Virus record (IMG/VR): IMGVR_UViG_3300020045_016833
Span: 1 to 51,308 of that record
Length of the DNA: 51,308 bases
Strand: one strand, 5' to 3'
Source: a virus
Taxonomy: Duplodnaviria; Caudoviricetes
Position numbers and translations under genes: made by a program. Under the pieces are notes generated by a model. The model was not told the origin of the DNA. It saw only the letters and a list, made by a program, of their open reading frames with translations, and made no database searches. Positions 22,936 through 29,401 of this stretch are shown piece by piece (positions within the stretch are counted from its first letter, which is position 1; the number at the start of each line of letters is the position of its first letter).

Positions 22936-23310
22936 ATGAAATTAAAATCACTGCTCTCAATTATGCTAATCGGGATGATTAGTCTAACAGCATTTGCAAC
23001 TACAAGCAAACTGGAGCAAAAACAAAAAACAGAATTCAAAATGGAACCCTCGTTTCAAATTGAAGCTGTAAACGTAGCAAATGATTTTCAGGTTGTTTTT
23101 GTATTGACAAATTCAGCAATTTTAAAAAACAGTGAAGTGGAAGTCTTTACAATTTTTATCAATCCTGTAGCCATTTTAAATGACGTTGGATGGAAAAGAA
23201 AAAAGCAATCTTATCAATCTATATCATACCAAGATAAGTTGCTGGAGAATTATACTTTAAACTTCAAAAACCATTTTAATTCAGTCCCCAATATGCGGAG
23301 CAACTGTTAA
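22936..23310 (+). CDS. Signal-peptide-bearing hypothetical protein
   Basis: MKLKSLLSIMLIGMISLTAFA. Confidence 0.6.
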   Translation: MKLKSLLSIMLIGMISLTAFATTSKLEQKQKTEFKMEPSFQIEAVNVANDFQVVFVLTNSAILKNSEVEVFTIFINPVAILNDVGWKRKKQSYQSISYQDKLLENYTLNFKNHFNSVPNMRSNC

Positions 23311-23331
23311 AAAGGTTCGATTCAATATATC

Positions 23332-23360
23332 AAAATCCATTCATTAAATGAATGGATTTT
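23332..23360 (+). terminator. 13-bp hairpin immediately before the tRNA-like element
   Basis: AAAATCCATTCAT-TAA-ATGAATGGATTTT. Confidence 0.55.
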
Positions 23361-23365
23361 TAAAT

Positions 23366-23499
23366 GGGGAAGTAGCTCAGGCGAAAGCAAAGGTTAGAGC
23401 ACTAATATTAGGTCGGTAACGGTAGTCTTGAAAAGCCTAGAAAAGTAGAGACAGTGTAAAGCCTTGAAGAGGTCAGCGGTTCGATTCCGTTCTTCTCCA
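23366..23499 (+). ncRNA. tRNA-like RNA with expanded D loop and a 68-nt insert replacing the anticodon arm
   Basis: Acceptor GGGGAAG/CTTCTCC, TA, D stem GCTC/GAGC, variable AGGTC, T arm AGCGG-TTCGATT-CCGTT; no canonical anticodon arm. Confidence 0.75.
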
Positions 23500-23565
23500 C
23501 AACAACCACGAAGATCGAAAACATAGCTGAAGGAGTTTCAATAGGACGTTATTTTAAAGTTCAGC

Positions 23566-23780
23566 AAAAAAAGTCATTCACCCCGATAAGTCGGGACATG
23601 AAACCATTCGGGTTGGAAAGGCTCGTCAAATCATTACATGATACGTGAATTAATGGGATTTTGTCGAGTACATAATCAATAGAACGTAGAAAATCTGAAT
23701 CGTATAGCGTTGAGTTAAGTAGGTGTTTACAATTTCATGAGCTTATCTCTATAAAAAATCAGATGTGAATGACTTTTTTT
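23566..23780 (+). ncRNA. Candidate structured ncRNA closed by a 16-bp stem
   Basis: AAAAAAAGTCATTCAC / GTGAATGACTTTTTTT, several internal stems, no ORF in the track. Confidence 0.55.
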
Positions 23781-23852
23781 TAATTTTTAAAAAACCAGTA
23801 AAATCAATACCTCAGTCAACTTACTACACAGGCCAGAGACAAAAAAATAAAC

Positions 23853-24077
23853 ATGAATATAAAAGAAGAAATTCAATCTACTCCAACTTTCAAAAAGCTA
23901 ATTAAAAGCACACCTTTTTTACAAAAGACTCTTTTGAAATGTACGACAACCGAAAGCATCGAGAGAATTATTTATCAGATACAAAAATTTGGGGAAGATT
24001 ATGTTGCTGACAAAAATTACATGGATCGCGAAGTTCAAATAGCCAAAGAAATAATTGAAAATTTAAATAATAATTAA
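23853..24077 (+). CDS. Hypothetical protein
   Basis: ORF. Confidence 0.6.
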   Translation: MNIKEEIQSTPTFKKLIKSTPFLQKTLLKCTTTESIERIIYQIQKFGEDYVADKNYMDREVQIAKEIIENLNNN

Positions 24078-24079
24078 GA

Positions 24080-24418
24080 ATGAAAATAGAAATCGAAAAA
24101 GGGCGTGTTTTTGTCGACGGTAAAGAAACAGTAGATCCGGTTCTTATTGGTTATGCGGTTTTAGATTATGCCGAAAATTGCAATGTGGATTTATCTACAT
24201 TAAAACAGAAATACCATAATTACATCAAGGACCGAAATCATAGAAAGACTTTCGAGCGTGAAACTCTTATTGATTTGATTGTTTTAAAAAAACTTATTAC
24301 ACCTCAGGAATTAGCAATTGAGGCCAAAAAAATAAATATCTCTCAAGCTACCTGTTATAATGTTTTCTCTTTTCTAAAGGAGGCAGGAATCGCAGACTTT
24401 TCTAACAAATGGAATTAA
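24080..24418 (+). CDS. Truncated Fur-like winged-helix protein with extra N-terminal domain
   Basis: HRKTFERETLIDLI and ISQATCYNVFSFLKEAGI parallel the Fur RKTxER and SRATxYN..L.E.G motifs; ends before the dimerisation domain. Confidence 0.65.
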   Translation: MKIEIEKGRVFVDGKETVDPVLIGYAVLDYAENCNVDLSTLKQKYHNYIKDRNHRKTFERETLIDLIVLKKLITPQELAIEAKKINISQATCYNVFSFLKEAGIADFSNKWN

Positions 24419-24954
24419 AAAATATGAAACCAATAAATTTTAAGGAATCGACTATTGAATTAAAAAAGCCAAAATCAATGACAGATGAAGAATGTTCTAG
24501 TCTGTTTATTCATCAATCAGATACAGGAGAATGTATATCGTGCTGGACAGTTCCTTTTTGGAAACGACTGCAATTTCTATTTCATGGTAAAATATGGCTT
24601 GGAGTTGTTTCCGGTAAAACTCAACCTCCAATTTGGTTAGACTGTAAAAAAACAGTTTTTAAGCCTAAAGTAGATCAAAGACTATTATGGTTAGGTATCA
24701 TGAATCAATGGTTTATTCAATGGTTTTTTATCAGGATTTTTAGTAACCGGGAAGAAGGTTCTCATACGCATTATGGGATTTTATATTGGGTATGGCCGGT
24801 AACTGGATGGATTACAAATTATAAAATTATAGGCGAAAAAATTAAATACAAGCACTTCAAAAAACAAGAAAAATCCAAAGAATCCAAAAAACAAGAGTGT
24901 TATAAAGGACATGGGTTATGTGATTGTACTGGATTGTGTAGAGAAAATTGTTAA
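24409..24954 (+). CDS. Hypothetical phage protein
   Basis: KPKSMTDEECSSL..CISCW..GKIWLGV; Cys-rich tail. Confidence 0.6.
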   Translation: MELKNMKPINFKESTIELKKPKSMTDEECSSLFIHQSDTGECISCWTVPFWKRLQFLFHGKIWLGVVSGKTQPPIWLDCKKTVFKPKVDQRLLWLGIMNQWFIQWFFIRIFSNREEGSHTHYGILYWVWPVTGWITNYKIIGEKIKYKHFKKQEKSKESKKQECYKGHGLCDCTGLCRENC

Positions 24955-24970
24955 ACTTAAATAAAAATAA

Positions 24971-25510
24971 ATGAAAGGATTCTTAGACATTGAAACAGGC
25001 GGTTTCTCCATTACCAAAAATGGAATATGTGAAATTGCATTAATTGCGGTTAATCATCAAAATGAAATTTTTGCAACATTCCATACATTCATAAAACCTT
25101 ACACCAGAGAAGAAGGTTCTGAAGAGTTGGTATCATACAAAGATGATGCAATGGCAATCAATGGCCTTACTGTTGAAAAGCTAATCGAGGAAGGTACAGA
25201 TGTTGAAATAGCAGCTGAGCAATTATACAACTTCATTATACAACATGATATAATTGAAATCATAGGACATAATTCCAAAGTATTTGATGTTCCTAGAATA
25301 AAATATTTACTTCAAAGATTCATGTCAGTGGATTTGACTCCATTAATAAATGAAGATGATACTATGCTCATCGCCAAACAAAAACTAAACCTGCCATCGT
25401 ATAAATTGGAGGTATTATGTGCTCATTTTGGCATTATAAATACAGACTCTCATACTGCCAAAGGCGATGCAAAAGCAACGTTTGAATTATACAAAAAATT
25501 AATCTTGTAA
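24971..25510 (+). CDS. DEDDh 3'-5' exonuclease (DnaQ-like)
   Basis: LDIETGG, GHNSKVFD, HTAKGDA. Confidence 0.9.
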   Translation: MKGFLDIETGGFSITKNGICEIALIAVNHQNEIFATFHTFIKPYTREEGSEELVSYKDDAMAINGLTVEKLIEEGTDVEIAAEQLYNFIIQHDIIEIIGHNSKVFDVPRIKYLLQRFMSVDLTPLINEDDTMLIAKQKLNLPSYKLEVLCAHFGIINTDSHTAKGDAKATFELYKKLIL

Positions 25511-25512
25511 GG

Positions 25513-25827
25513 ATGAAAGGTAAATATTTAATCACTACGGATAATTGGTTTTATGCTCCAGACGGAAAACAATATCGTGGAGTTTGGGGTAATGTAGAAA
25601 TAGTAGGCGATGCTATCTTAGGAATTAAAACAAACGTCAGAAGTTCGAATTGGTTTGCAAAGGTAGGAAGTGAAGATAATCACGTAATAATTGCTGGATG
25701 CCAAATACATTATGCTGTAAAATGTGAAAATGAACCAAATAATGAACCGGTAGAGGATTATAATATTGAGGGAGGTAAGATTTCAAAATTTACACGCCCT
25801 ACAATGTCTTACTATATTGTTAAATAA
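25513..25827 (+). CDS. Hypothetical phage protein
   Basis: ITTDNWFYAPDGKQY..IAGCQIHYA. Confidence 0.7.
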   Translation: MKGKYLITTDNWFYAPDGKQYRGVWGNVEIVGDAILGIKTNVRSSNWFAKVGSEDNHVIIAGCQIHYAVKCENEPNNEPVEDYNIEGGKISKFTRPTMSYYIVK

Positions 25828-25832
25828 TATAA

Positions 25833-27353
25833 ATGGCAAAACTTACAGATGATGAAATAAATGAACTAGATCTACTTTTAACTCAACGACGAGCCGATGA
25901 GTTAAAAGCTAGTTTATTCGAATTTGTAAAAGAGTTTTGGGATGTAATTATTACAGATGAATATGTTCATAACTGGCATATTGAATTTATGTGTGATGAA
26001 ATTCAGTTAGTCGTTGATAAATATGTTCTGGAAAGATCGCCGCATATTTCAAATGACAAATGGTACGAAGGAATAACCAGTAATATTCAAAAAAACTTAT
26101 TATTTAATATTCCTCCAGGAACTTCCAAATCTACAATTACATCTAGGATTTTGCCTGCTTGGATTTGGGCGGTTGACGATTCCAAAACCGTAATGACCAA
26201 CACGGTTTCACAAACCAACGCAAATGAATTTTCCTCAAAATCTAGAGATATTATTCAAAACGAAAAGTATAAAAATTATTTTCCTCATGTAAATATTAGG
26301 TATGATGTAAGTGCTAAAACGTTCTACCAAACCAAAAAAGGAGGAGTTAGGTTTTCATTTTCAACCAATGGATCAGTTACAGGGAAGCACGCCAGTATTT
26401 TAATTGATGATGATAGAATGGATGTGAAAATAGCAGATAGTCCAGCCGAAAGATTAAGAGCTATAAATCAATTCAAGGCATTTCAGACAAGAAAAAAGGA
26501 CAAGGCAAAAACCCCCTATATTTTGATGGAGCAGCGGCTTTCTAATAAAGATACAACTGCACACTGTTTGAATGTATTCAAGGATGAATGCAGACATATT
26601 TGCTTACCAGCAGAAAATGTCTATAAAAACATTGAGCCAAAAGAAATTGAAAAATTTTACATTGATGGTTTGCTGGATCCGGTTAGACTAAACAGAGATA
26701 TTCTTAAATCAACCCGTATGGGATTGAGTGATGAATCGAAGCCAATATCTGAAATCGCCTATAACATCCAATTCAATCAAGTATCTGAAACAGTTGAAGG
26801 ATTACTTTATGGAAAGTTAAATTTTGTAAAATCATTACCAGAAAGTAGAGATGGTTCAATTCGATATTCCTTCACTGATGTTGCTGACACTGGAAGTGAT
26901 TATTTTGCTACTCCATTTATGGAAATCAATAAGAATAAAATATACGTTTTTGATGCGATTTACACACAAGAACCAAGCGGCATCACTTCTCAAAAAATGA
27001 AATCAAAGATTGAACAGCATGGTAGTGTAGTGAATAAAATTGAAACCAATAATCAAGGAAGCGTGTTTGTTACATTACTTCAAATGATGGGTGTAAATGT
27101 TTCAGGCTATTATTCCTCTGGAAATAAAGAAGAGCGCATAAGCGCATGGGCGCAATTCATATCATTCATCTATTTTGTAGAACCGGACGAAAACAGCTCA
27201 ACGGAATACCGCCAATTTATCAAGCATTTACAGTCATACCCAAAAATAGGAAAACATGATGATGGCCACGATGATGCTGAAGATGCAATTACCGAAATGC
27301 TAAGGTATATCTGGACCAATTTAAGACACTTATTTATGAATCAAAATCAATAA
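25833..27353 (+). CDS. terL: Terminase large subunit
   Basis: NWHI, NIPPGTSKS (Walker A), ILIDDD (Walker B), MEQRL, DVAD..HDDAED nuclease motifs. Confidence 0.9.
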   Translation: MAKLTDDEINELDLLLTQRRADELKASLFEFVKEFWDVIITDEYVHNWHIEFMCDEIQLVVDKYVLERSPHISNDKWYEGITSNIQKNLLFNIPPGTSKSTITSRILPAWIWAVDDSKTVMTNTVSQTNANEFSSKSRDIIQNEKYKNYFPHVNIRYDVSAKTFYQTKKGGVRFSFSTNGSVTGKHASILIDDDRMDVKIADSPAERLRAINQFKAFQTRKKDKAKTPYILMEQRLSNKDTTAHCLNVFKDECRHICLPAENVYKNIEPKEIEKFYIDGLLDPVRLNRDILKSTRMGLSDESKPISEIAYNIQFNQVSETVEGLLYGKLNFVKSLPESRDGSIRYSFTDVADTGSDYFATPFMEINKNKIYVFDAIYTQEPSGITSQKMKSKIEQHGSVVNKIETNNQGSVFVTLLQMMGVNVSGYYSSGNKEERISAWAQFISFIYFVEPDENSSTEYRQFIKHLQSYPKIGKHDDGHDDAEDAITEMLRYIWTNLRHLFMNQNQ

Positions 27354-27381
27354 ATGATTATCCATATAAAAACTAAAAAAG

Positions 27382-27645
27382 ATGAAAAAAGTAATAATTA
27401 TTGGTTCTGGACTATATCCTATTCATTTAAAACACTGTATCGATATTATAATCAATGATGAAAAAAATAATAAGGAGAAAACATTAAAAATGTCTTTTGA
27501 GTATTTAGCTTCTAATGCAGAAAGTACCAAAGAGGCGATTAATAAGTTTGTTGAATCCATGAAACAAGCAAATTTTAAGAAATCATTCGAACCAGAGCCA
27601 AGTAAGTTCATCAGTAAACCTAAAAACAATTTTAAAAAACGATAA
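27382..27645 (+). CDS. Hypothetical protein
   Basis: ORF. Confidence 0.55.
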   Translation: MKKVIIIGSGLYPIHLKHCIDIIINDEKNNKEKTLKMSFEYLASNAESTKEAINKFVESMKQANFKKSFEPEPSKFISKPKNNFKKR

Positions 27646-27646
27646 A

Positions 27647-27784
27647 ATGACAGCAGAGGAAAAAGAAAAAATTGATTATAAAATTCAAGCAAAAATAAAG
27701 GCCAGGAATAAAGATATAGGAGATTGGGGATGTGCTGGATTATTAGCCATACTATTTTTTTTGTTTTTACTAATTATCGGATAA
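27647..27784 (+). CDS. 45-aa membrane peptide (MTAEEKEKIDYK...WGCAGLLAILFFLFLLIIG)
   Basis: Hand translation. Confidence 0.5.
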   Translation: MTAEEKEKIDYKIQAKIKARNKDIGDWGCAGLLAILFFLFLLIIG

Positions 27785-27814
27785 ACTTCAATCAATTAAA
27801 ATAAAAAAGCGGAA

Positions 27815-27836
27815 CCTGAAAAGCTAATGAGTAGGG
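27815..27836 (+). promoter_or_regulatory. GAA/AGUA hairpin RNA motif (second copy)
   Basis: CCT-GAA-AAGC-TAATG-AGTA-GGG, same pattern as 23425-23452. Confidence 0.45.
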
Positions 27837-27858
27837 AAAATAAATAATAATAAATATT

Positions 27859-28083
27859 ATGCCACAAGTAAGAGCAAAATTTGTTTGTGAATCTGTCACA
27901 AACTAGGAACACAGTAAAACTGCAAAATTAAGAGCGGTGTATGGAACTGCGGAAGAAAACGCAGATTTCACAAAATATACTCCAAATGGAAGCATTGAAG
28001 TATCAATTACTAATGATGCTCCGGCCGATGGAGTGTTTGTTCCTGGTAAAAGCTATTTTGTAGATTTTACAGAAGTAGAGTAA
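27859..28083 (+). pseudogene. 74-codon phage gene interrupted by an in-frame TAG at 27904-27906
   Basis: MPQVRAKFVCESVTN*EHSKTAKLRAVYGTAEENADFTKYTPNGSIEVSITNDAPADGVFVPGKSYFVDFTEVE. Confidence 0.75.
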
Positions 28084-28100
28084 TTAATCTCAATTATTGC

Positions 28101-28132
28101 AAAAAACCACATTAGAAATAGTGTGGTTTTTT
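28101..28132 (+). terminator. Intrinsic terminator before the portal operon
   Basis: AAAAAACCACA...TGTGGTTTTTT. Confidence 0.65.
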
Positions 28133-28146
28133 TATGTAATCGCTTC

Positions 28147-28189
28147 TTATTTTTATTTAGACTAAATAAAAATAATTTCATTACATTTG
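28147..28189 (+). promoter_or_regulatory. 29-bp palindrome (Fur-box-like) plus -7 box of the structural operon
   Basis: TTATTTTTATTTAG-A-CTAAATAAAAATAA at 28147-28175; TACATTTG at 28182-28189. Confidence 0.65.
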
Positions 28190-28207
28190 TTGAAACAAAA
28201 TTCATAT

Positions 28208-29401
28208 ATGGGCTTCTGGGAATCTTTAAGGACATTTAGATATGGGATAGAAACTAAAAATGATTCTGTCAACGGCCAGCCTGTACAGATGGAAATTGAT
28301 GTTTTTGGCATCGGAAGTAATGACAAAAAAACATTCTACTCCGATTCTACAAAATTCGTAAAGCTTCAAAAAGAAACATTTGTCCTAAACAATGTGTTCA
28401 ATAAAATTGCCAGTAAACTATCCAGTGCGCAATTTATAAGCGAGTCAGATAATAGTGAAATATTAGATAAAATCAATAATCCCAATGATTCGCAGTCTAA
28501 AGAAGAATTTTTAAAAGAGTTCGCTGTCTTTTTATTGTCTTCAGGTTGGACAGCTATCTGGAAAAAATATAAATCATTTGGGAATTTCAAAACTTTAGAG
28601 CTGATCAATTTAAATCCGGATAATACCGATATAGGTAAAATCAATCTAACAACTGAAATAGATGGAAAGTCAGAAACGATATTGTTGACCGATGTCATTT
28701 TATTTTATGACAGTGTTCGAAACAACAAAAATAAAAAGGGCTATTCAAGAATTACGCCTTTAAGAACGCAGATAAATAACATTAAAGATGCGCAATTAGC
28801 TAAAGGTATTCAAATTGAGAATTCAGGAACTACCATAGTTTCACCAAAACAAACAGCTGCCGGAAATAATATAGATGAAGGTTTAAATGCACCGGTTCCA
28901 GTTATGGGAGGTGGTTTAAAAACTCAAAGAGAGGAAATGGAAGATCGATTTAGCAGTCGAGGCCTAATAAATAGAATCATTGTTTCATCAAAGGGATTGG
29001 ATGCCAAAAACCTTTCTGCTGAATTAAATACAGTTAAGTTTCATGAGATAGTTGAAACTGATATTCTCGCAGTTTATGATGCTTATAACTTCCCAGTTGA
29101 ATTAAGTCCATACGGTAAGAATGCGACTTTTGAGAATAAAGAAGTTGCTGAAGTTGGCTTAATAGAAAATGAAGTATCTCCATTAGCTGAAAATCTAGTC
29201 AATTCACTTAATGCCGAATTTCCGAACAAGAAACCAATCGATGTTGATTTTAATCATTTGAATTCAATGTCAGTAATTCAAGAAAGAATTCAAAAAACAA
29301 ACGGAACCACGATTGATCAATATGGAACTTTATTTGACAAAAAAATTATAACTGAATCAGAGTACAAAGAAATATTAAAATCTAAAAAAATATTACTATG
29401 A
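28208..29401 (+). CDS. Portal protein
   Basis: Position after terL; INNPNDSQSKEEF, KGYSRI, ATFENKEVAE, ENEVSPLA patterns of HK97-like portals. Confidence 0.8.
   Translation: MGFWESLRTFRYGIETKNDSVNGQPVQMEIDVFGIGSNDKKTFYSDSTKFVKLQKETFVLNNVFNKIASKLSSAQFISESDNSEILDKINNPNDSQSKEEFLKEFAVFLLSSGWTAIWKKYKSFGNFKTLELINLNPDNTDIGKINLTTEIDGKSETILLTDVILFYDSVRNNKNKKGYSRITPLRTQINNIKDAQLAKGIQIENSGTTIVSPKQTAAGNNIDEGLNAPVPVMGGGLKTQREEMEDRFSSRGLINRIIVSSKGLDAKNLSAELNTVKFHEIVETDILAVYDAYNFPVELSPYGKNATFENKEVAEVGLIENEVSPLAENLVNSLNAEFPNKKPIDVDFNHLNSMSVIQERIQKTNGTTIDQYGTLFDKKIITESEYKEILKSKKILL

Follow-up and report, generated by a model that had tools for sequence, protein, structure and literature searches.

DUF805b (Rfam RF02914) is a candidate cis-regulatory RNA motif that came from comparative genomics, and Rfam lists it under the type Cis-reg in clan CL00115. 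A different kind of RNA is the engineered transfer RNA (tRNA) scaffold, in which an aptamer replaces the anticodon arm and the acceptor, T and D arms are kept for cellular processing and stability. A phage RNA of tRNA type has also been described: in the passages of PMC4131195 and PMC11915505 that concern it, the RNA of mycobacteriophage DS6A is little more than a tRNA-like domain, and a molecule similar to it strongly inhibits transfer-messenger RNA (tmRNA), perhaps by titrating SmpB. The present study concerns the phage genome IMGVR_UViG_3300020045_016833 (Duplodnaviria; Caudoviricetes; positions 1 to 51,308, hereafter the window), in which one hairpin core occurs twice, as copy 1 inside a tRNA-like gene and as copy 2 in front of a small open reading frame (ORF). 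The window is a complete phage genome of 51,308 bp with direct terminal repeats and a GC content of 33%, and it reads in the standard code (code 11). Its large terminase (TerL, 25833-27353) has its best named likeness in a Riemerella-type phage (40% identity) and in Cellulophaga phages (35-36%), thus a host in Flavobacteriia/Bacteroidota is likely. The reading that we favour, and to which we give slightly less than an even chance, is that a leader-type module is displayed in trans on a tRNA scaffold, the two copies being different things that share one RNA module.

The two hairpins stand at 23425-23452 (copy 1, GTCTT-GAAAA-GCCTAGAAA-AGTA-GAGAC) and 27815-27836 (copy 2, CCT-GAAAA-GCTAATG-AGTA-GGG), and direct inspection of the letters confirmed the coordinates given in an earlier note on this DNA. 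The description in that note was also accurate in that a U-G pair closes each stem beside GAA, the adjacent pair changes from U-A (copy 1) to C-G (copy 2), CGG is found 5' of each copy, and copy 1 is within a tRNA-like gene and copy 2 intergenic, between the stop codon 27782-27784 and the ATG at 27859. Could such a repetition arise by chance? The shared words TGAAAAGC-N4-8-AGTAG, a pattern picked post hoc from the two copies themselves, are found twice in the window, whereas 0/100 dinucleotide shuffles had a match (mean 0.00).

Copy 2 is an ordinary member of DUF805b, a family that is already known while its function is not. The Rfam covariance scan, which the earlier note had proposed as a check, found copy 2 as DUF805b and gave no DUF805b match for copy 1. 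The matched region, 27806-27837 on the + strand, covers model positions 1-35 and has 36.7 bits (E = 7.7e-07), above the gathering score of 35.6; it scores 53.6 bits with R1, our own covariance model built from 49 family members. Thus copy 2 resembles the described family in the whole model, in position and in host range. Its parts, two stems (S1 and S2) and the loops around them (L1 being the first), are as follows.

27808-27810 with 27823-27825, + strand: S1, AGC/GCT, the 5' hairpin of the Rfam model, covarying
27811-27814, + strand: L1, GGAA
27815-27817 with 27834-27836, + strand: S2, CCT/GGG, covarying
27818-27822, + strand: GAAAA
27826-27833, + strand: AATGAGTA

A pattern scan of IMG/VR gave 101 loci, among which the subset with GC directly 5' of GGAA is the clean family: all 50 of the 50 records picked by the pattern and this GC anchor exceed the Rfam cut-off, 44/50 with one DUF805b match and the other 6 with an extra match, mostly far under the cut-off. 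The same pattern gave at least 124 loci in prokaryote genomes; all counts for prokaryotes here and below are among the matches listed. The GC anchor is present in 111/124 of them, and the record titles are mostly of Flavobacteriia, Bacteroidales, Cytophagales, Chitinophagales and Saprospiraceae; one member (L354) is in a Flavobacterium johnsoniae genome. The GC-anchored matches across Bacteroidota genomes indicate that DUF805b is a Bacteroidota motif shared by phages and not a phage invention, and the idea that the motif is specific to phages was not borne out. The word AGCGGAA, which weak R1 matches had raised as an independent repeat, was seen 6 times against 4.48 expected and is put down to chance. 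RF02913 was considered as a DUF805 sister family, which was wrong, since RF02913 is pemK. Full-text literature searches on the DUF805b and DUF805 motif names returned nothing beyond one unrelated methods paper, and DUF805 is not named in the main text of the paper taken as the DUF805b source.

What is the structure of the element? In the Rfam model the AGC 5' of GGAA is joined to the GCU 3' of GAAAA, and the model as printed has no second helix. The second helix, which was the closing stem in the earlier note, joins NCC before GAAAA with GGN after AGUA. Covariation was scored at the pair positions left free by the search pattern; the GAAAA and AGUA blocks are fixed by the search patterns, so their conservation is not independent, and the Rfam consensus prints both in capitals. 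For the 49 distinct phage sequences, the free pair of S1 is AU in 43, CG in 3, GC in 2 and other in 1, and that of S2 is GC in 31, CG in 9, UA in 5, UG in 1 and other in 3. In this set 98.6% of the cells pair, compared with 88.8% in shuffles (0/500 shuffles as high), and the pairing falls to 6-46% when the partners are slid. Among 107 distinct bacterial sequences S1 pairs in 103 (GC 45, AU 34, UA 13, CG 10) and S2 in 101 (UA 32, GC 29, AU 24, CG 10, GU 4, UG 2); for the bacterial matches without the GC anchor the numbers are 7/13 and 4/13. With S1 and S2 both supported and crossing each other, the DUF805b element is an H-type pseudoknot of about 35 nucleotides (nt), in the order S1-GGAA-S2-GAAAA-S1'-AAnAGAGUA-S2'. 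The plain hairpin proposed before is thus correct in its closing stem, whose outer pair covaries, and incomplete in its apical loop, which pairs with the 5' flank and makes a pseudoknot.

Note that the GAA and AGUA blocks adjoin S2 in the order of a bulged-G module. The bulged-G signature of the sarcin-ricin loop and loop E has AGUA opposite GAA, with a Watson-Crick helix 3' of AGUA and 5' of GAA. The layout of the window's hairpins fits this signature as the earlier note had claimed, and by sequence alone the signature may be recognized in both copies and in the cargo of the related genome G019 described below. The difference is that there is no canonical helix on the far side, where in DUF805b the next bases pair with the 5' flank.

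Copy 1 has a quite different setting. It occupies the place of the anticodon stem-loop in a gene derived from tRNA-Ala, whose features are listed below together with the hairpin in front of it.

23332-23360, + strand: terminator-type hairpin ending 5 nt 5' of the tRNA-like gene (fold of 23328-23365: -13.4 kcal/mol, z = -4.10, 0/200 shuffles)
23366-23499, + strand: tRNA-Ala-derived tRNA-like gene, 134 nt, 33.2 bits with Rfam tRNA (RF00005; cut-off 29)
23366-23372 with 23492-23498, + strand: acceptor stem, 7 bp, with G3 (23368):U70 (23496)
23375-23378 with 23397-23400, + strand: D stem, GCTC/GAGC, with an 18-nt D loop
23381-23388, + strand: D-loop mini-hairpin GC-GAAA-GC, an extra element inspected by eye
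23410-23452, + strand: copy 1, the DUF805b-like core that replaces the anticodon stem-loop
23410-23413 with 23435-23438, + strand: possible S1 of copy 1, AGGT/GCCT
23414-23424, + strand: L1 of copy 1, 11 nt, containing CG-GTAA-CG
23425-23429 with 23448-23452, + strand: S2 of copy 1, 5 bp, GTCTT/GAGAC
23430-23434, + strand: GAAAA of copy 1
23439-23447, + strand: AGAAAAGTA of copy 1
23470-23474, + strand: variable loop AGGTC
23475-23491, + strand: T arm, with the T loop GGTTCGATTCC
23499, + strand: discriminator A73

In the Rfam tRNA alignment 16 nt are extra in the D loop and 64 nt in the anticodon arm, and ARAGORN calls neither a tRNA nor a tmRNA at 23366-23499. The gene retains U8, A14, G15 and the GG (G18-G19) of the D loop. 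There is no 7-nt anticodon loop, the Rfam model pairs just 2 bp of the anticodon stem, and no alanine anticodon triplet (TGC, GGC or CGC) occurs within 23402-23469. G3:U70 and A73 form the identity set of alanyl-tRNA synthetase (AlaRS), which is used by tmRNA too, and both are present here. Judged from its letters, the scaffold keeps all the features for tRNA maturation (acceptor, T arm, D stem, G18-G19, variable loop) together with the AlaRS set and is unable to decode. The claim that copy 1 is carried on a tRNA scaffold therefore stands, and the scaffold looks as if made for processing. Its design is that of the engineered scaffolds, with cargo in place of the anticodon arm; unlike them the window gene would be natural, its D loop contains an additional GNRA mini-hairpin, and the cargo of its family is placed in either the anticodon arm or the D loop.

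Short, very deep contigs from environmental sequencing runs match 23465-23500 alone and continue 5' as an ordinary tRNA whose anticodon is interpreted as CGC; this fits the descent of the scaffold from a cellular tRNA-Ala. With the tmRNA model (RF00023) the gene has 23.1 bits against a cut-off of 47, matched through the tRNA-like ends alone. A mini-tmRNA was rejected on this low score and on the lack of a resume frame at the distance expected from the leader spacing, which leaves a remote analogy at most. A blastn search of 23300-23620 against named phages gave no match. A junction like ..gcttttttaaat also precedes related tRNA-like genes. The non-coding stretch 23500-23784 after the gene, which includes a CCCGATAAGTCGGG hairpin, is kept with 65-74% identity to L004, L005 and L006, and L263 and L279 have near-identical starts. 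In a contig of run X1 about 189 extra letters lie just 5' of the tRNA-like gene (about 23360-23366 in the window), where two pieces of the contig overlap.

How does copy 1 compare with DUF805b? Its layout, AGGT-(11 nt)-GTCTT-GAAAA-GCCT-AGAAAAGTA-GAGAC, follows the DUF805b order, except that the first loop is longer and S2 has 5 bp, and the 5-bp stem is present in both the minimum-energy and the centroid folds of the entire tRNA-like gene. Copy 1 may thus be described as a diverged core of the module, with a closing helix, a purine-rich GAAAA/AAGUA internal loop and an apical loop whose bases can pair with those of the 5' flank. Unlike the DUF805b members it is not in a leader, and it is the core alone that it shares with the described family.

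Relatives of the gene give information on its conservation. A tRNA scan of 50 phage records with DUF805b found 2 over-long tRNA matches, both at the locus orthologous to that of the window, which has its terminator-aaat junction and its downstream sequence in common with them. G019, a complete genome of 51.6 kb, has the gene order and flanks of the window and a DUF805b leader about 5 kb downstream of the tRNA-like gene. Its cargo is TCAAAC-GAAAA-TGTACATA-AGTA-GTTTGA, with 8 nt between GAAAA and AGTA, and both GAAAA and AAGTAG are retained. When this cargo is aligned from the loop with that of the window, 4 of the 5 stem pairs are altered on both sides, and the stem of G019 is one pair longer. 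Contigs of close relatives from 3 runs in 3 studies span the gene. They have no listed substitution or indel in 23402-23484 and differ from the window at 19, 12 and 12 listed places elsewhere, which is a hint and not a proof, since some differences in the piece totals are not itemised. In the D-loop mini-hairpin a contig of run X4 has C23382>A with G23387>T, a compensatory change; A23389>C adds a pair with G23380, and A23384>T turns the GAAA loop to GUAA, still a GNRA loop. The compensatory changes in G019 show a cargo hairpin conserved in structure, as it would be if kept by selection, and the contigs, with their unchanged cargo and their compensatory change in the D-loop hairpin, point the same way. 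The U-G closing pair found in both copies of the window is rare, with 1/49 phage and 5/107 bacterial members of DUF805b having it, and in G019 the leader and the cargo both close on C-G.

The slot of the gene is variable. In L004 an ordinary-length tRNA (933-1001, CAU by eye; 46.1 bits in Rfam, yet not called by ARAGORN) lies upstream of a match to 23566-23781 of the window, approximately in the slot of the tRNA-like gene. In L279 (G073), at the window's locus, there is a 141-nt gene resembling two tRNA-like units fused within one shared acceptor stem.

The genomic position of DUF805b bears on its possible function. In the window the ATG of the ORF at 27859-28083 follows the GAGTAG of copy 2 after 24 nt. 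Among 68 phage cases, 53 have their first ATG, counted from 8 nt past GAGTAG onwards, at a distance of 20-25 nt from GAGTAG, and in bacteria the modal distance is 21-26 nt. The spacer from DUF805b to the start is 20-25 nt, rich in A, U and C. The stop codon of the preceding gene is often no more than about 10 nt 5' of DUF805b; with the close ATG, this means that the element fills a short intergenic gap. No promoter-like word was found at a fixed distance 5' of DUF805b (no TAnnTTTG or TTTG in 63 upstream regions). A promoter directly 5' of the element was rejected also on the sigma-70-type sites in 23000-28400, which are not above shuffles (21 vs 26.0). The features downstream of copy 2 are these.

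27859-28083, + strand: small ORF led by copy 2, 74 codons, PHROG phrog_6978, function unknown, with an in-frame TAG as codon 16
28098-28140, + strand: strong terminator-type hairpin after the ORF and before the portal gene (-16.1 kcal/mol, z = -5.32, 0/200 shuffles)
28187-29401, + strand: portal gene (Pfam PF04860)

DUF805b is paired with phrog_6978 also in L013, L016, L027, L028, L048 and L063. In general the phage genes behind the element are small and varied, including phrog_6978, phrog_717, HU-like DNA-binding, ParB-like and DNA methyltransferase genes and several without a family match. In bacteria DUF805b heads many ordinary monocistronic-looking genes, and 72 of 100 downstream products start with M-K/R or M-x-K/R, interpreted as likely signal peptides or export. 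The in-frame TAG of the phrog_6978 ORF is at 27904-27906, around which the homologues have D, Y, S or N; it is probably a nonsense mutation or a site of low-level read-through. A suppressor tRNA, or recoding of TAG, was rejected: taking TAG as sense barely extends the ORFs of at least 100 aa, from 44,178 to 47,625 nt (TGA 60,018; TAA 72,726), and the tRNA-like gene has no plausible CUA loop.

The closest TerL relatives lack the stretch 27353-28100 with copy 2 in it, and the stretch bearing the terminator (28101) is matched in L004, L006 and L007, all without DUF805b. The earlier note had given copy 2 a role in cis, in a 5' leader or as an antitermination site. Copy 2 is indeed in the 5' leader of the ORF, but antitermination is less likely than translational control, because the spacing is fixed to the start codon (20-25 nt) and because the terminator stretch is kept in relatives without the motif.

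There are two further arrangements of DUF805b. In two provirus records (G007, which is L254 61-170, and G048) it begins 6 nt past the 3' end of an ordinary tRNA gene, where tRNA processing could set the 5' end of the motif-bearing RNA. In about 10 phage loci (L019, L041, L066, L071, L079, L110, L112, L020, L045 and L107) it is followed by a conserved hairpin and not by a normal gene. The hairpin is ACCATG...ATGGT or, in other loci, ACCATT...AATGGT, and in some of them it overlaps a 10-codon mini-ORF, MKHKENGNLF.

Is the tRNA-like gene of the window an isolated case? A search of IMG/VR with a single strict pattern, made of GGGGAAGT, 70-130 nt, the T loop and CTTCTCC, gave 25 loci, which are 23 further distinct genes, or 24 with that of the window. 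The discriminator is A in 22 of the 24, and many of the genes directly follow a terminator. All 20 of the 20 scanned loci match Rfam tRNA or tmRNA over a long gene, and in these 20 no Rfam family was found for the cargo. The cargo has two sites. One is the interval from the D arm to the T arm, which then measures 55-91 nt in place of the normal 22; the other is the D loop, which then measures 46-51 nt, the anticodon arm being reduced to 14-21 nt. This suggests that the 24 alanine-type tRNA-like genes with swapped-in cargo may form an undescribed class of phage small RNAs. Full-text literature searches on phage tRNA-like scaffolds and decoys turned up the DS6A tRNA-like-domain RNA as the sole precedent. 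As far as the DS6A RNA is described in these sources, the window gene is like it in being phage-encoded and non-decoding, with an alanine-type acceptor and T arm and with a proposal of host-factor titration. It differs in its normal D stem and its low tmRNA score, and in its 64-nt leader-like cargo, a feature that is not reported for the DS6A RNA in the passages concerned. On another viral contig, L261, the RNA gene at 251-356 (106 nt) has 53.7 bits with the tmRNA model, whose cut-off is 47 and whose length is 374 positions; it consists of the tRNA-like domain only and is DS6A-like.

What could the two copies do? Copy 2 is most likely a cis-acting translational control element with a host-supplied trans factor as its reader, be it the 30S subunit, S1 or another protein; a small ligand is a less probable reader. 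The reader is probably a host component, since the DUF805b leader family is host-wide. As to copy 1, the core of the module would have been grafted into the anticodon stem-loop position of a tRNA-Ala-derived gene. After transcription, RNase P and the enzymes of 3' end maturation would trim the RNA and CCA would be added, so that it might accumulate in stable form and present the leader-like module in trans. As a decoy or sponge it may then compete for the partner of the DUF805b leaders, those of the phage and those of the host; alternatively, the tRNA-like RNA might be the true ligand of a factor, and the leader its mimic. What the analysis shows is the identity of copy 2, the pseudoknot, its start-codon spacing, the anatomy of the scaffold, a family of such scaffolds and a conserved cargo hairpin; the expression, processing and charging of the RNA, the common partner and the direction of the effect are all matters that we infer. 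The E. coli thrS operator, a mimic of tRNA arms, offers a comparison: there as here an element before the start codon resembles what occupies the anticodon arm, so that one factor could bind both. Unlike that operator, the present pair has no known synthetase or other partner, and the resemblance is between a leader and a non-decoding tRNA-like RNA. In its broader form, in which Bacteroidota phages carry natural Ala-tRNA scaffolds with varied cargo, matured and kept stable by host tRNA enzymes, and the cargo here mimics DUF805b as a decoy that takes over or relieves its host reader, the proposal is on the doubtful side.

Several observations weigh against the display of a leader module on the scaffold. 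The Rfam DUF805b model gives no match to copy 1 at E <= 10 in searches of 23000-28300 and 23400-23470, nor does R1 at E <= 10 when run without filters. Copy 1 lacks the family-invariant GGAA loop, having the 11-nt CGGTAACGGTA there instead, and it has A where DUF805b has an invariant G (AAGTAG against GAGTAG). Because it fails both models and loses invariant positions, copy 1 shares the core of DUF805b and is not a member of the family; the claim that one same hairpin occurs twice was right as to a real shared core but overstated the likeness. The cargo of G019 is without the GC that forms S1 in DUF805b, so the pseudoknot may not persist in the cargo version. Descriptors that use structure only are enriched modestly over shuffles: a loose one (stem of at least 3 bp, GAAAA, N4-12, AGTA, stem) has 3 matches in the window against a mean of 0.78, with at least 2 in 33/200 shuffles, and with the pseudoknot stem added there are 3 against 0.31, with at least 2 in 11/300. 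Folding energies are no better than those of shuffles (z = +0.59 for 27803-27842 and +1.02 for 23405-23457), which is expected for stems of 3-5 bp around non-canonical loops and still means that folding lends no support.

The distribution of copy 1 is narrow as well. The DUF805b-like core is in just 2 of the 24 scaffold genes, those of the window and G019, which are one lineage, and the closest TerL relatives (77-94% identity) carry neither copy. No further tRNA-borne copies were found in the pattern scans of IMG/VR or among the 120 metagenome matches listed, the latter being dominated by ordinary tRNA 5' ends (..AGTAGCTCA..) and so uninformative on absence. In the first IMG/VR scan the 2 loci are an ordinary tRNA (interpreted as tRNA-Ser) and an unrelated locus; the second gave 12 loci, all apparently coding, and the third 11, namely 7 apparently coding, G019 and 3 tRNAs with an unrelated 57-nt insert. 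Thus the tRNA-borne copy is so far limited to one phage lineage. In sequencing-run contigs there is no evidence of transcription, such contigs showing relatives of the gene; the sole contig from an RNA library, 593 nt long and including coding flanks, may be DNA.

Two observations made in these scans may be added. The third match of the loose descriptor, at about 1759-1803 on the minus strand, has an 8-bp AT-rich stem around GAAAA...AGTA; it overlaps ATGAAAAAAGC, which resembles a start codon region, and is probably due to chance. The conserved insert of about 57 nt lies in the anticodon loop of tRNAs in L410, L411 and L414 (IMG/VR contigs of 107-156 kb) and in L147 and L158 (metagenome). These inserts contain GAAAAGC-N6-AAGTAG with another predicted fold and are far too short for a group I intron.

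Other explanations of the two copies have to be weighed against these facts. The tRNA-like RNA may have a function unrelated to DUF805b, for example as a decoy for AlaRS, SmpB, a tRNA-cleaving defence nuclease or a modification enzyme, the hairpin being a common building block that was used twice. Bulged-G modules do recur in unrelated RNAs, 22 of the 24 scaffold genes have unrelated cargoes without the core on a constant acceptor and T arm of alanine type, which would then be the working part in place of the cargo, the DUF805b models miss copy 1, and titration by a tRNA-like domain has a precedent in DS6A, as the sources cited above describe it, to which may be added that L261 passes the Rfam tmRNA cut-off at 106 nt. 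Yet the shared-word match exceeds shuffles, the rare U-G closing pair is common to both copies, and the full D stem of the window gene is unlike the tRNA-like domains of tmRNA (23.1 bits vs 47). Both of the core-bearing cargoes, moreover, are in genomes with a DUF805b leader. Of the 25 other records that bear a scaffold, just 2, G019 and G010, have this leader above the cut-off; both are related to the window phage, and the association is weak because the genomes are kin. We regard an unrelated function as unlikely, though a serious candidate. Might the gene instead be a decaying tRNA-Ala pseudogene in a recombination-prone tRNA slot, with an insert that is functionless debris, perhaps from a DUF805b cassette? 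Such a history would suit a variable slot, which holds an ordinary tRNA in L004, nothing in L005 and the two-unit chimera in L279, and would suit an element that heads varied accessory genes, stands in the window within a stretch that the closest relatives lack, and follows a tRNA by 6 nt in the proviruses G007 and G048. A decaying gene, however, would hardly keep every tertiary-contact position of the tRNA core intact with the anticodon arm alone replaced, nor a cargo without a listed change in three related contigs; the acceptor and T arm are perfect in 24 distinct genes, though the search pattern demanded them. The compensatory changes in the cargo stem and in the D-loop hairpin make a pseudogene improbable.

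The other two alternatives concern the reader of copy 2 and its target. If DUF805b were a small riboswitch aptamer, the tRNA-borne copy could soak up or sense the same small molecule. With about 35 nt, two 3-bp helices and invariant purine-rich loops, the element is like the smallest of the pseudoknot riboswitches in size and form, and its Rfam type is Cis-reg; but the downstream genes are diverse with no metabolic theme, no expression platform was seen overlapping the start region, and copy 1 alters invariant loop positions, which leaves the riboswitch even less probable than the pseudogene. The least probable is the cis model of the earlier note, in which copy 2 is a processive antitermination site for read-through of the 28101 terminator into the portal gene. 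Sites of the put type are few per genome, as DUF805b is usually in single copy per phage record, and a strong terminator does separate the cassette from the portal gene, 264 nt downstream of copy 2. Against this model are the spacing, which is fixed to the start codon and not to the terminator, the many monocistronic-looking genes that the motif heads in bacteria, and L004, L006 and L007, which have the terminator stretch and lack the motif. The display of a leader-type module on a tRNA scaffold, with copy 2 as an element of translational control, is the reading that we retain.

The meaning for Bacteroidota and their phages follows from the two copies separately. Bacteroidota largely do without Shine-Dalgarno pairing. 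DUF805b is widespread in them with unknown function, and a pseudoknot at a fixed distance from the start codon makes a role in translation testable. If the tRNA-borne copy is a working mimic, the gene would be in nature what the engineered tRNA scaffold is in the laboratory, and the phage would interfere with host gene control by means of RNA, through an RNA sponge directed against a translational control element.

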